Below, one piece after another: positions 57,898 to 64,000 of a DNA stretch of 64,000 bases. The first letter of the stretch is position 1, and the number at the start of each line of letters is the position of its first letter. The position numbers and the translations under genes are program-made. The notes below the pieces were generated by a model, which was given only the letters and a program-made list of their open reading frames with translations, was not told the DNA's origin and searched no databases. Source of the stretch: Minisyncoccota bacterium (GTDB taxonomy: Bacteria > Patescibacteriota > Minisyncoccia > Phycocordibacterales > UBA5272); contig JAXLZS010000001.1 of assembly GCA_046350775.1 (NCBI GenBank), forward strand, positions 22,353 to 86,352, in the 5' to 3' direction.

Positions 57898-60800
57898 ATG
57901 TGGTCGAGATTTTTCCAAAAAATTAAAATAGTTTTCATTTTTATTTTCTTTTTTGCTGTCTTTGTTTTTAAAGCTTCAGCTGATGAAATAGTTGTGGTAC
58001 AAACTACGGATTTTCCTGTTGAGCAGTCAGCTGTCTTGGCAGATGCTCCAGTAGAAAATTTATCTACAATAAATTCTACAGAAGTCACAAGTGATGCCGT
58101 GACCCCTGATACTACTACTTCATCAGCATCATCAGACACTTCTTCTTCAACTCAAGTTACAGAAAATAATTCTTCTACTACTATAGAAAATATTATAGAA
58201 AATATTTCAAACGAAAATTCTTCATCAACTGTAGAAAATATTTTTTCTACAAACAGCACGAGTAGCACAACCACAAATGAAAATATTTCTTCATCAACTT
58301 TAGAAAATAATTTTACAGAAAATATTTTAAATGAAATTTCTTCTAGCACCACTCTCGAAACTCCATCTTCTTCGATAGAAAATAATTTTTCTTCTACTAC
58401 AGAAATAGATCTCACACCAAAGGTGGTCGAAGAATTTACAGAGGTAGGAAAACTCGTCACTATATCTGCGACCGATGAGCAAGAAGCGATCAAGCCGATG
58501 ATAGACATACCAGTCTCGACTTCTATTCCAGAAATTTTTAAAGTTGGTCAAGAAGACAAAATAAAAATTAAATGGAAAAATAATTTAAATCAAGAAATGC
58601 AATTTACCACTTCTGATGAAGATGGAAATGGATACATAGATCACATCAGTTGGATAGTGCCACATCTCTCAACTCAGACTTTTGAGATTATTTTTATTTC
58701 AAACGCTTTACGCTTGGATTCTGACAAAAACATCATCGAAGATATTTTCAGCTCAGTCGGAGAGTGGGATAAAAATTTTGCTAGCATTTTGAATGGTCAA
58801 TATGTGAGAGTGACTTTTGAGCATTTGCTAGACAGTACTAGAGACATCACAATCTTTGCTAGACCAACAGATAATAGTTCTCCCGCATCAATAGAAGTCT
58901 ATACAAAAGATGGTACATATGTAGGAACTATATCTAATATAGATCATGACGGAAAATATACTCTAGTCCTAAATAATCTTGCTACATCTACAGATGTTTT
59001 TGATTTAAAAATCATTGGCAATGTAGATATCGACTATATTACAGATCCTGATGCGTATTGGGTAGGAGGTACAGGCAACTGGTCTGATCCAAGTCACTGG
59101 GCCTCTTCATCTGGTGGTGTGGGTGGTAGCTTTGGAGGTATACCTAATGCTACAACAAGAGTCTATTTTGATTCTTCTTCTGGAGCTTCTACTACCATTG
59201 TAACAATTGATACATCAGCTACAGTAGGATTTTTTAGCCTTTCTGGGTATTTGGGAACAATTGTTCAAGATGCGGATTTAGATATAACAGATTCTGGAGG
59301 ACAGCCTGGCGGATTTATTATAAGTCAAGGAGGAACATTTACATCAACAAATCCTTTGGTTAATAATTTTTCTGTTACAGGATCTTTTGTTATATCTATT
59401 AACAGTGGAATATTTCGTCGCTACACTGGACTTGGGACAACCAATGATCCGTATTTGATTTATGATGTCTATGGTTTACAAGGGATGTTTACAGGACTTT
59501 CTAATTCTTATAAATTAAATAATGATATTGAGGCGACAAGTACTCGCCTATGGGATACCATTTTTTATGGATATGGATTTAGACCCGTAGGAAATAATAC
59601 GACTCCATTTTCAGGAGTTTTTGATGGAGCAGGACATTCTATAAACAATCTTTACATCAATGCTTTTTCTAATGGTATAGCAGTAACAAGCTATATTGGA
59701 CTTTTTGGATATTCTACTAATCTTATAAAAGATGTAACACTTAATAATTTATCAATTACAGCAACAAGTTCATCTGGATCAAATGGTTCTTCTTATGGTG
59801 ATGGGGTTGATGGTATATCTACTTCTAATGGAATAGCTGGGTTTGCGGGAAATGCTGGCTCTGTCTTATATTTGGGTGGTCTAGTAGGTTATAATACGGG
59901 TAATATTAGTAATGTAAATATCAGTGGAAGTGTATCAGGTACCGCAGGAAGTGGAGGTAGTGGATCAAGAGGTGGAAATGGAGGAAATATCACAAGTGGG
60001 AGTAATACAGCTGGATCTGGTGCATCTGCTCCTACAAATGCAGTAGCTGTAGGAGGTGTAGCATATGTCGGAGGTCTGGTAGGATATTCTCAGCAAGGTA
60101 TCATAAATTCAGCTTCAAGCTCTTTGACGGTCACTGGACAGGGTGGAGCTGGTGGAAATGGAGGCGCTGGTGGAAATGGTGGAAATGGGTCTGTGGCCGG
60201 AGTTGGAACTGGAGCTGGCGGTGCTGGTGGAGCTGGTGGAATAGGTGCTGCAGGTAATGTGGCCTATGTCGGAGGATTGGTGGGAATGATAAATACTGGC
60301 GTCATATCACAGTCAAACTCTACCGGCAATGTGACAGCGATAGGTGGAGCTGGGGGAAATGCTGGTACGGCAGGTACTGGTGGTAACGCCGGAGTAGGAG
60401 CTGGAGGGTCTGCTATTGGAGGTATTGGTGGTGCTGGTGCCGCTGGAGGTGCTGGAGGAATAGCATATGGAGGAGGACTGGTCGGATACAATTCTGGTAC
60501 TATCCAGAATGGAAGCTATGCCACAGGAATAGTCCAAGTAACTGGTGGTACTCCTGGTAATAGTTCATCTGGAGCTGCTGGTGGAGCATCTGCTGCTGGA
60601 TCTGTGACTACAGCTGCATCAGGAGCTACAGCTGTTGGTGGTGCTGGCGCTGCCGGAGGTGCAGCTTATGCTGGAGGATTGGTCGGATTAAATTATATAT
60701 CTGGAATAATTGACGGAGCTGTATCTTCTGTGTATGCCTCAAGTACTGTGACAGCGACTGGATCTAATGGTAAAAATGCTGGATTTGGTGGAACTGGAGG

Positions 60801-63800: not shown

Positions 63801-64000
63801 AGGAGGGATAGGAGGTAATGGATCAAGTGGAACAGGTGGCCATGCTGGAGGCGTCGGTGGCGCCGGAGGTGCTGGAGGATCGAGCGGCGCTTTGTATATG
63901 GGAGGATTGGTTGGTCAAGGAAATGGAAATATAGCAAATTCAAGTGCTCAGAATGGTGATATATATGTGTATGCTGGTGGATACGGTGGAGCTGGTGCCC
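57898..64000 (+). CDS. Giant secreted surface protein with more than 25 tandem GLUG-like motifs and poly-Gly (GGxGG) linkers (partial; no stop before the window end)
   Basis: Translated by hand in frame from ATG 57898 to 64000 without a stop (over 2030 aa). Signal peptide MWSRFFQKIKIVFIFIFFFAVFVFKASA; Ser/Thr-rich repeats (SSSTVENIFS..) and a roughly 350-aa globular region. From about aa 600 a unit of roughly 55-65 aa repeats: [AY][VA]GGLVGYN.G.I.NSYS.G.V...GG.GG.GG.GG followed by a Gly/Ala-rich run. The omission from the six-frame track is explained by the absence of a stop codon. Confidence 0.75.
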   Translation, partial: MWSRFFQKIKIVFIFIFFFAVFVFKASADEIVVVQTTDFPVEQSAVLADAPVENLSTINSTEVTSDAVTPDTTTSSASSDTSSSTQVTENNSSTTIENIIENISNENSSSTVENIFSTNSTSSTTTNENISSSTLENNFTENILNEISSSTTLETPSSSIENNFSSTTEIDLTPKVVEEFTEVGKLVTISATDEQEAIKPMIDIPVSTSIPEIFKVGQEDKIKIKWKNNLNQEMQFTTSDEDGNGYIDHISWIVPHLSTQTFEIIFISNALRLDSDKNIIEDIFSSVGEWDKNFASILNGQYVRVTFEHLLDSTRDITIFARPTDNSSPASIEVYTKDGTYVGTISNIDHDGKYTLVLNNLATSTDVFDLKIIGNVDIDYITDPDAYWVGGTGNWSDPSHWASSSGGVGGSFGGIPNATTRVYFDSSSGASTTIVTIDTSATVGFFSLSGYLGTIVQDADLDITDSGGQPGGFIISQGGTFTSTNPLVNNFSVTGSFVISINSGIFRRYTGLGTTNDPYLIYDVYGLQGMFTGLSNSYKLNNDIEATSTRLWDTIFYGYGFRPVGNNTTPFSGVFDGAGHSINNLYINAFSNGIAVTSYIGLFGYSTNLIKDVTLNNLSITATSSSGSNGSSYGDGVDGISTSNGIAGFAGNAGSVLYLGGLVGYNTGNISNVNISGSVSGTAGSGGSGSRGGNGGNITSGSNTAGSGASAPTNAVAVGGVAYVGGLVGYSQQGIINSASSSLTVTGQGGAGGNGGAGGNGGNGSVAGVGTGAGGAGGAGGIGAAGNVAYVGGLVGMINTGVISQSNSTGNVTAIGGAGGNAGTAGTGGNAGVGAGGSAIGGIGGAGAAGGAGGIAYGGGLVGYNSGTIQNGSYATGIVQVTGGTPGNSSSGAAGGASAAGSVTTAASGATAVGGAGAAGGAAYAGGLVGLNYISGIIDGAVSSVYASSTVTATGSNGKNAGFGGTGGSAALTTSGTGGVGGAGGTGGAGGLAYVGGLVGYNYGTIGSSYSKTGLVSIVGGSGGVGGTGGSGGAKGSAGTSGAGGASGAGGTAAVGAGIIYAGGLVGINEGIIQNTYSTNPVYGVAGTGGAGGAGVAAQTGLAGLAGGVGGAGGILNIGGITGRNNLSVVGSYHATGTIIGFSGAGGAGGIGGAGGAWTGGIAGVSGTSTAGGYIIAGGVIGINYGNSVLNNYSISDITATGGAGVAGANGRDGYTFTTGVAGVAGSAGAIGGIAYTGGVVGYNNNGEISNSYSIGNITANGGSGGNGGNGGNGGAGTSSTGGAGGAGAAGGTGGAVFAGGVAGQIILGTVTSSYNIGNVIGTGGSGGTAGNGGNGGVGGTNFAGGVGAIAGAGGSGGAAKVGGISGQSAGVIQENSYSIGDITATGGTARVGGIGGNGGASSGTFVGAGAVGGAGGAGGAGALAYAAGIVGDNSNTIINTYASGNIIATGSSGGNGGAAGSGGSNATGGSSSTGAAGVAGGAGGASAAAYAGGIATSNNGATIANSYIESGSVMAIGGNGGNGATGGAGGVAGTGALGAVGGTGGAGGTGSFGLAGGIVGQNLGGTVDNSHATINVSSISGRGGNGGTGGTGGAGANGGVGGASSGVGAVGYVGGAVAYNVGILNNIYASGNASTTGGIPGSNGSGGNGGSSSISAGGAGGASGAIAGSGGNAYAGGLVGLNFTNGVIQGASHASGNSIAVGGAGAAGANGASGGNSTGAFAGGAAVAGTAGTAGGFSGSGGLVGYNSWSVSSDSYAEGSVFSIGGAGGAGGNGGNGGSSGAGVAGTAGAAAAGGGTGGVSYAGGVIGSNTVLAGTINIANSTGTIYSKGGAGGAGGAGGNGGNGGSSTGAIGGAGGLGGTGGTGGAGYGGGIAGSNAGVIRNVTYTITSITVGGGEAGVGGSGGNAGASGNISGGAGATAGAGGAGGAGGATYIGGLVGDNSGLINTSIVYGNLASNNIDGGAGGVGGIGGNGSSGTGGHAGGVGGAGGAGGSSGALYMGGLVGQGNGNIANSSAQNGDIYVYAGGYGGAGA
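59700..64000 (+). repeat. Tandem degenerate DNA repeats (about 170-200 bp period) encoding the GLUG/Gly-rich modules
   Basis: Recurrent ggaggattggt(a/c)gg(a/t)ta(t/c)aat and gg(t/a)gctgg(t/a)gg(a/t) blocks. The antisense and out-of-frame ORFs 60264..60491, 60313..60537, 61112..61312, 61613..61804, 61814..62035, 62428..62613, 63005..63253, 63266..63520 and 63695..63943 are by-products of this repeat. Confidence 0.7.

Follow-up and report, generated by a model that had tools for sequence, protein, structure and literature searches.

A giant secreted protein of a Minisyncoccota bacterium with tandem units of GLUG cores and Gly-Gly-X segments

GLUG motifs (PF07581) form beta-helices, and structures are available for the putative IgA1 protease of Bacteroides ovatus (3n6z) and for streptococcal and Gemella IgA1 proteases (7jgj, 7uvk). 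In classical GLUG arrays the cores adjoin one another with a period of 20-30 aa. Here we describe a giant open reading frame (ORF) at the end of a 64,000-nt stretch of DNA, in the following called the window, from a Minisyncoccota bacterium (GenBank assembly GCA_046350775.1, contig JAXLZS010000001.1, positions 22,353 to 86,352). In its product an insert of ~35 aa built from Gly-Gly-X triplets follows each GLUG core and the period is ~65 aa. With at least 22 units in the window and ~49 in an intact orthologue (L009) the array is far longer than classical GLUG arrays, and no protease domain was found. On balance we favour the view, drawn from sequence and structure models, that the protein would be a giant Sec-exported surface fibre with an ordered Gly-Gly-X element, serving as adhesin or spacer for host-cell contact. 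NCBI treats 'Candidatus Paceibacterota' as the phylum Minisyncoccota, including the class Nanosynbacteria, while the papers cited below speak of Patescibacteria or the candidate phyla radiation (CPR).

The glycine-rich part resembles the mycobacterial PE_PGRS proteins in its long tracts of GGA- and GGN-type triplets and in belonging to a secreted, surface-exposed protein, and may resemble them in the packed polyglycine II (PGII) helices that AlphaFold predicts for PGRS. PGRS domains are predicted to fold as a PGII 'sandwich' or 'sail', in which inward-pointing glycines explain the glycine requirement (Berisio & Delogu 2022, PMC9436101). Unlike these proteins, the window protein has no PE domain, GRPLI motif or ESX secretion (no Pfam match) and carries a Sec signal peptide instead. 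PGII helices make up the whole PGRS domain, whereas in the window protein they would form short pairs between beta-helix rungs. PGRS domains are also highly polymorphic, while the window units are conserved position by position, and the two groups belong to unrelated phyla. A survey of polyproline II (PPII) bundles lists gp38 of Salmonella phage S16 as a protein combining PGII helices with beta-solenoid layers (bioRxiv 10.1101/2023.11.25.568672). S16 gp38 (6F45) is a compact tip with ten PGII helices and hypervariable loops, whereas the array described here is periodic and would contain ~100 helices, and no sequence relationship to it was detected in a search of PDB sequences. The springtail and snow-flea antifreeze proteins (7jjv, 2pne, 3bog) are two-layer Gly-rich PPII/PGII bundles of tripeptide repeats, but these are stand-alone eukaryotic proteins of 81-126 aa with G-X-X repeats and in some cases disulfides; the window protein lacks Cys and its helices would be grafted onto a beta-helix. 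Gly-rich PPII/PGII bundle domains, whose left-handed helices have three residues per turn and pack with Gly at the interfaces, also occur in Obg and ALK.

Giant fibrillar adhesins such as serine-rich repeat (SRR) proteins, Embp, SiiE and Giant1-5 of Apilactobacillus combine a signal peptide, a low-complexity Ser/Thr region, a binding-type domain, a long stalk and a C-terminal attachment, and occupy a large share of the genome. The design of the window gene taken together with its orthologue resembles this overall layout. However, stalks of fibrillar adhesins consist of Ig-like domains, alpha-helical bundles or SRR, and the proteins are retained by LPXTG or by type-I secretion, whereas here the stalk is a predicted GLUG/PGII hybrid and L009 ends in a dockerin. 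The likeness to cellulosome-type type-I dockerins (PF00404) belongs to the orthologue L009. Epibiotic growth of the cultivated Saccharibacterium Southlakia epibionticum is reported to require envelope proteins with dockerin and fn3 domains (Wang et al. 2023, PMC10633639).

We determined how rare the unit is by searching a profile of 21 complete units against 1.84 billion representatives clustered at 50% identity; the window's own cluster was excluded and close relatives may be hidden. The profile matched 14,369 proteins at E <= 1e-3 and 597 at E <= 1e-30. The best 150 of the 14,369 were all classical tandem-GLUG proteins with a core spacing of 20-40 aa, a Gly content of at most 21% and almost no (GGX)3 tracts, and direct inspection of these 150 revealed the hybrid GLUG/Gly-Gly-X unit in none. 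It was seen only in the orthologue group and in the fragments P0001, P0002, P0005, P0061, P0062 and P0064. No description of a GLUG/Gly-Gly-X architecture was found in the literature on GLUG generally, on GLUG in Patescibacteria and on giant or glycine-rich Patescibacteria proteins. The GLUG beta-helix, the PGII element and the fibrillar adhesin are known kinds; their combination in this putative stalk appears not to have been described before.

The repeat unit and its conservation in orthologues

Using a hidden Markov model (HMM) built from 16 hand-picked units, we located 22 tandem units of a GLUG core followed by (Gly-Gly-X)n at aa 654-2034 (59857..63999, + strand), the last of them cut by the window end. 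Unit lengths range from 56 to 70 aa with a median of 65. In most units ~28 aa with short beta strands are followed by two G-G-X runs with a short variable loop between them, according to the consensus GGxxYxGGxVGxNxxGxIxxSYxxGxVxxxGG-xGGxGGxGGxGG-xxxxxx-AGGAGGAGGAGGx, and the Gly-rich part takes up ~30-38 aa per unit. A preliminary description of the locus, made from the letters alone, had counted at least 25 repeats of a roughly 60-aa module with glycine-rich stretches of 20-35 residues; the unit HMM gives 22 tandem units and one degenerate proto-unit instead, with a somewhat longer period and glycine-rich part. Gly and Ala account for 36% and 16% of aa 651-2034 and for 46% and 21% of the Gly-rich parts, which contain only 10 charged residues and 3 Pro among 691 residues. 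The G-G-X phase is well kept: at lags 3, 6 and 9 non-Gly residues reach 1.43, 1.37 and 1.31 times the expected frequency, and at other lags they are depleted.

The GLUG motif named in the preliminary description proved genuine, as PF07581 matched two fragments with 26.0 and 20.9 bits (gathering score 20.5). Whole-protein scans of Pfam and NCBIfam returned nothing relevant and probably missed GLUG through composition filtering. A protein search with six repeat units was dominated by low-complexity words and gave 6 matches. Tandem Repeats Finder (TRF) reported only short 9-nt (three-codon, Gly-Gly-X) tracts and detected no array whose period comes close to 195 nt, and the mean identity between paralogous units of the window is 43%. 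At the DNA level the repeats are therefore degenerate, as had been proposed, and they are old. The accompanying claim that they are neither a recent amplification nor an artefact likewise holds on the TRF result, the paralogue identity and the identity to the database contig L001 discussed below. An RTX or beta-roll adhesin was ruled out, since the repeats contain 0 matches to the RTX nonapeptide GGxGxDxUx even with Asn allowed for Asp, and no HemolysinCabind match. A collagen-like triple helix was ruled out by 0 (G-X-Y)n runs of five or more triplets and by the scarcity of Pro, which accounts for 4 of the 1,381 repeat residues, so that the collagen-like linker composition first suggested was not borne out. 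Poly-Ala blocks are absent from the repeats.

A genome scan with the last 235 aa retrieved three loci in metagenome-assembled genomes (MAGs) labelled 'uncultured Candidatus Saccharibacteria' (L008, L009 and L010). L009 is an intact ORF of 5,359 aa, whereas L008 (2,097 aa, 24 units) and L010 (2,513 aa, 29 units) are open and cut by contig ends. The series of unit lengths is nearly the same in all four proteins. Between the window and L009 unit lengths correlate with r = 0.98 and a mean difference of 0.3 aa (permutation p <= 1e-4), and each of the 21 complete window units finds its best L009 match at the same index. Unit identity is 68% at the same index and 43% at other indices. The Gly part is 75% identical to L009, or 58% when positions with Gly in both proteins are left aside, and gaps take up 7 of 693 positions, while a control with shifted index gave 46% identity (25% non-Gly) and 93 gaps. 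GLUG cores are 61% identical (51% at non-Gly positions). From this same-index orthology it follows that the array predates the divergence of the lineages, that it has not been homogenised and that each unit is individually constrained.

L009 also provides the full-length design. It starts with a signal peptide and an acidic/Thr/Pro spacer, followed by the same N-terminal module, the same region starting AYWVGGTGNWSD and the same GLUG entry as in the window protein. About 49 units extend to aa 3810 and are closed by a canonical GLUG C-cap (SYWD...TSEMK...WDF...W...YP); 14 fn3 domains (E 3e-102), a G15 stretch and a Dockerin_1 domain (PF00404; 28.2 bits, cutoff 22.9) with two D.N.DG.VN..D loops follow, and the C-terminus after the dockerin reads ...YQWGKNPALFKRE. 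We found no LPXTG at the L009 C-terminus and no beta-barrel family in the C-terminal 1,610 aa, which hold fn3 and Dockerin_1 instead. On L009 only, a type V autotransporter was ruled out by the lack of a C-terminal barrel, and an LPXTG sortase-anchored adhesin by the dockerin end without LPXTG. A standard autotransporter passenger, which the preliminary description had named as the contrary case, is thus not what the dockerin end without barrel and the best 150 GLUG proteins without hybrid unit point to. As inferred from the orthologues, the window gene would encode ~5,000 aa or more, with ~49 units, the GLUG C-cap, ~14 fn3 domains, poly-Gly and a type-I dockerin. One further homologue, L007 (NCBI GCA_037975565.1, JBBCBH010003404.1, 3257-21176), has ~52-62 units with a period of ~200 nt followed by fn3. 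It contains many frameshifts in all three frames and more than 25 small called genes, which reflects either sequencing error of the assembly or a decaying pseudogene.

Neighbourhoods of the orthologues differ without conserved synteny, and no cohesin is found among the neighbours. Upstream of the L009 gene (1312-1863, +) lies a gene for a 183-aa protein with a VPDSG-CTERM motif (PF18205, 28.5 bits), a motif tied to exosortase-type processing. The fn3 domains of L009 (16020-19900; aa 3895-5190) are much alike by eye, as if recently amplified or homogenised; judged from the sequences, the two arrays of one gene, fn3 and GLUG/Gly, would be evolving in opposite modes. A search with cap and C-terminus of L009 gave 3,325 matches. 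Among these are many proteins of ~325 aa (325-340) with their own signal peptide, fn3 and dockerin in Patescibacteria/Pacebacteria (e.g. P0255, P0259, P0260, P0263, P0264), which hints at a general dockerin-based surface assembly system in Patescibacteria with a cohesin-type partner.

Predicted structure and proposed function

We assessed the fold of the array with an AlphaFold2 (AF2) model of units 10-13, which reached a predicted local distance difference test score (pLDDT) of 86.7 and a predicted template modelling score of 0.77. Each unit shows five short strands over ~27 aa followed by ~35 residues that are neither helix nor strand. The blocks of Gly-Gly-X segments have a pLDDT of ~76-96 in the first three modelled units and ~58-61 in the last units of the model. 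The four modelled cores fit onto a contiguous GLUG beta-helix at 1.6 A, with 115 of 255 residues aligned; since this amounts to ~29 per unit, successive cores stack as consecutive rungs. This is the rung stacking of the solved GLUG structures; an AlphaFold test of a repeat fragment for a beta-solenoid had been suggested in the preliminary description. Foldseek placed the springtail nine-PPII-helix antifreeze protein 7jjv first among PDB structures (E 2e-3), followed by snow-flea antifreeze proteins, all of them weak matches; a PDB sequence search returned artificial Gly linkers only. On the model we conclude that GLUG cores would stack as rungs and that the Gly-Gly-X segments would be ordered excursions between them. 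These excursions may be antiparallel PGII hairpins packed as a sheet along the helix, for which the PGII fold matches are weak.

A bolder version of this model seems possible to us, though doubtful: the array could form a continuous two-layer PGII sheet of ~100 helices in the full-length protein, with one out-and-back hairpin per repeat, fused rung by rung to the GLUG beta-helix, and act as a rigid uncharged epibiont-host tether of ~25-50 nm anchored by the dockerin. The rung spacing of a beta-helix, ~4.8 A, equals the lattice spacing of polyglycine II. If this is true, the array would exceed every known PGII assembly in size; among PGRS sails the largest one predicted has 54 helices (PMC9436101).

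The surface fibre that we favour would work as follows. Sec export would deliver a giant cell-surface fibre of a Patescibacteria (CPR) bacterium. Each Gly-Gly-X segment would form an out-and-back pair of PGII-type helices, and adjacent hairpins may line up along the beta-helix as one continuous two-layer sheet, so that a stiff, almost uncharged rod of tens of nm results. With a rise of ~4.8 A per rung and ~3.5 nm per fn3 domain, ~49 units would roughly measure 24-47 nm (one or two rungs per unit) and 14 fn3 domains would add ~50 nm. By its C-terminal dockerin the fibre would be fastened to a cohesin-type partner on the cell surface, while a lectin-like N-terminal module at the tip would bind glycans of the host cell. 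Which end of the fibre is anchored is the least certain step.

The putative tip is a conserved all-beta module at aa 172-384 (58411..59049, +), which ends with DIDYITDP. In a fold comparison part of it adopts the galactose-binding-like jelly-roll fold of CBM32 / F5-8 type C modules, with ~10% identity to the structural matches. The module gave no Pfam CBM or F5/8C match and just sub-threshold matches to DUF6911, PRC and Big_6. A protein search with the first 700 aa yielded 60 proteins, most of which share only aa 172-384; in these relatives a signal peptide and a spacer of low complexity always precede the module. The domains that follow vary (FISUMP (PF09603), LamG-type, fn3), and the module is common to many secreted Patescibacteria proteins with other C-terminal domains; among the 60 only the truncated P0001 and P0002 run on into GLUG/Gly units.

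The adhesin-like role proposed in the preliminary description is a reasonable candidate function in view of the CBM32-like module of the window protein and the fn3 array and dockerin of the orthologues. Its placing of a giant Sec-secreted repeat protein in a streamlined lineage agrees with the small genome of this member of the Patescibacteria. Several points weigh against a surface fibre with an ordered Gly-Gly-X element. The C-terminus of the window gene lies outside the window, and the orthologues that supply it are 57-75% identical by segment. The AF2 model was based on an alignment of 8 rows, mostly paralogous units, and AlphaFold confidence on Gly-rich repeats, as in PGRS, is not validated by experiment for such sequence. 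No cohesin partner was found next to the orthologues or in the window, where no search was aimed at cohesin itself. The dockerin protein that is essential in Southlakia, SEML1_0315, was rejected as an orthologue, as it is a 927-aa Ig/fn3 protein without GLUG.

The same molecule could instead have a structural role as surface layer, sheath or matrix that coats or spaces the cell and is cross-linked to envelope polymers through its dockerin and CBM-like module; we regard this as unlikely but deserving consideration. Its surface would be uniform and uncharged: the whole visible protein has no Cys, and only 27 charged residues occur among the 1,381 repeat residues. The stand-alone fn3-dockerin proteins that are very common in Patescibacteria suggest a general surface assembly system, and the N-terminal module occurs in many proteins whose payloads differ, which would suit an anchoring handle. 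However, the locus is apparently single-copy, with no paralogue and no dockerin- or unit-like sequence at 1-57800 of the window (57.8 kb; cohesin itself was not searched for), and fibrillar adhesins have the same modular order of head, stalk and anchor.

A flexible tether or entropic spring, in which GLUG cores are beads on elastic, extensible Gly-rich linkers, is in our view improbable. The composition of the Gly parts (46% Gly, 21% Ala, almost uncharged) is one often met in disordered or elastomeric segments, no regular secondary structure is assigned to these parts by DSSP and the pLDDT drops to ~58-61 in the last modelled units. However, linkers keep their length within 0.3 aa (mean) of L009, and their non-Gly identity of 58% compares with 25% in the shifted control. 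The superposition of four cores on a contiguous beta-helix at 1.6 A indicates stacked rungs, not beads, and the repeats, with 4 Pro, have neither a G-X-Y pattern nor poly-Ala blocks. Flexible collagen- or spidroin-like linkers, as first described, are thus not supported; the segments are at least as conserved as the cores (58% and 51% at non-Gly positions) with 7 gaps in 693 positions.

We also consider it very improbable that the gene is an assembly artefact, a pseudogene or an ordinary family member (autotransporter passenger, RTX or LPXTG adhesin). Six JGI/Logan contigs of the same population carry the upstream 155-aa protein, and five of the six break inside the repeats, at 60106-60832 of the window. 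The remaining JGI contig, L001, matches ORF nt 57898-63466 with 0 differences over 5,569 nt and is perhaps not fully independent of the reads of the MAG. Beyond 63466 it turns into reverse-complement-like Gly-repeat sequence (L001 9422-9554), which creates a false stop. The "complete" 1,859-aa product of L001 was therefore rejected as a spurious database entry whose stop lies in a chimeric contig end. These breaks, the chimeric end of L001, the frameshifted L007 homologue and the fact that a protein database search did not return the window's own protein speak for an artefact. On the other side stand the intact 5,359-aa orthologue, the DNA-level degeneracy of the repeats and a strain variant (L002) that differs from the window by 34 synonymous and 6 conservative non-synonymous codons without indels, a pattern which is the signature of functional coding sequence. 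Frameshifts or stop codons, which according to the preliminary description would argue against the gene, are absent from the visible frame, from the 5,569 nt of L001 that match it with 0 differences and, as to indels, from L002. An ordinary family member is at odds with the missing RTX nonapeptide, with the lack of a beta-barrel match or LPXTG tail in L009 and with the absence of the hybrid unit from the best 150 GLUG proteins. Binding of an ice, mineral or crystal face by the flat regular Gly/Ala/Ser/Thr/Asn surface, in the manner of springtail PGII antifreeze proteins and beta-helical ice-binding adhesins, is just as improbable, as the weak antifreeze matches reflect the shared PGII element and not function, and orthologues occur in MAGs from several unrelated projects.

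We tried to extend the gene beyond the window. The upstream 155-aa protein and DnaJ led only to contigs of at most 10 kb, which break inside the repeats. An exact 39-nt pattern from the window end had no match in a metagenome scan, and when the last 235 aa were used for such a scan, matches to the pattern AGGNGGNG prevailed and no extension was obtained. One database entry, P0061 (JGI, 308 aa), in which four GLUG/Gly units are fused with the C-terminal portion of a glycosyltransferase (PF00534), most likely represents a chimeric contig and no real fusion.

The visible gene and its surroundings in the window

The whole visible gene occupies 57898..64000 on the + strand. From ATG 57898, the first canonical start after an upstream in-frame stop (~57829), 2,034 codons run to position 64000 without a stop, as the preliminary description had read it, and the frame is open at the window end and continues into the 614-kb source contig. 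The gene is indeed missing from a stop-to-stop ORF list, because its frame runs off the window end. An extended -10-like box, TGgTATAAT (57880..57888, +), was noticed by direct reading 9 nt upstream of the ATG and is a lead only. A consensus promoter and terminator scan found nothing, including no -35/-10 pair upstream of the gene, and no Shine-Dalgarno sequence is visible between the box and the ATG. To judge from the letters, the leader may be very short or absent and the mRNA leaderless or near-leaderless.

The protein begins with MWSRFFQKIKIVFIFIFFFAVFVFKASA (aa 1-28, 57898..57981, +), which by eye shows a basic n-region, a hydrophobic core and an A-S-A cleavage motif, with DE after the cleavage site; the Sec signal peptide described before can thus be read directly, and L008, L009 and L010 start with equivalent N-termini. 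A low-complexity spacer rich in Ser, Thr, Asn and Glu follows at aa 29-171 (57982..58410, +). Over aa 31-180 Ser makes up 21%, Thr 19% and Asn 12%, and the spacers found at the same position in orthologues vary in composition and length. This composition and the region behind it agree with the Ser/Thr-rich part and following globular region proposed earlier.

Behind the N-terminal module lies a region rich in beta strands that starts with AYWVGGTGNWSD (aa 385-537, 59050..59508, +). Its start resembles autotransporter-associated beta-strand repeats, and PF12951 is present in the homologue P0034. AF2 predicted short strands with a pLDDT of ~77-89 up to ~aa 505. Motif comparison and unit HMM assign aa 538-653 (59509..59856, +) to the N-terminal entry of the GLUG beta-helix (YKLNNDI...FSGVFDGAGHSINNLYI...YIGLFGYS) with the degenerate proto-unit at aa 594-653. 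The same series of entry motifs opens classical tandem-GLUG proteins, e.g. P0076 and P0129. AF2 confidence in the entry region is low because the multiple sequence alignment is thin.

Across the repeat region the GC content climbs from ~0.30 to 0.49. By codon position it is 0.62, 0.69 and 0.16, and the repeats prefer GGT/GGA and GCT codons as do DnaK and the neighbouring genes. Since GC at the third position is only 0.16 and codon preference is shared, the rise is explained by the first and second codon positions of Gly and Ala, and the DNA is native and not foreign. The gene stands alone, downstream of DnaK, DnaJ, tRNA-Gln and three small genes.

Elsewhere in the window, the 23S rRNA gene (within 18348-22098) measures 3,256 nt, ~330 nt more than the 2,925-nt bacterial model, and no intron family matched its region at E <= 0.1. 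A tRNA-Ala(tgc) (21896-21970) and the 5S rRNA (21991-22098) lie downstream of it, and a 16S gene was not found in the 64-kb window. For CPR bacteria, rRNA genes that contain insertions or are unlinked have been reported. The product of a 1,024-aa ORF (13978-17049, +) starts with a peptidoglycan-binding domain (PF01471, 42 bits), behind which ~900 aa have no Pfam match; it may be another large envelope-associated protein.

Possible meaning for attachment in Patescibacteria

A large part of bacterial diversity belongs to the Patescibacteria, whose cultivated members all live attached to other cells. Among their attachment structures type IV pili are the best characterised so far, and a transposon sequencing screen also flagged other envelope proteins (Wang et al. 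2023, PMC10633639). Genes like the one described here are systematically under-counted, because whole-protein scans of Pfam and NCBIfam stay blank, assemblers break or chimerise them and gene callers report false short products. If the beta-helix does carry a periodic polyglycine-II sheet, it would be a new fibrous scaffold and could offer an experimentally tractable test of the unvalidated PGII 'sandwich' predictions for mycobacterial PGRS. If as long as its orthologue, the gene takes up ~2.6% of a 614-kb genome, and the separate conservation of every single repeat in diverged lineages shows that strong and specific selection acts on it. It is therewith a concrete candidate for host contact.

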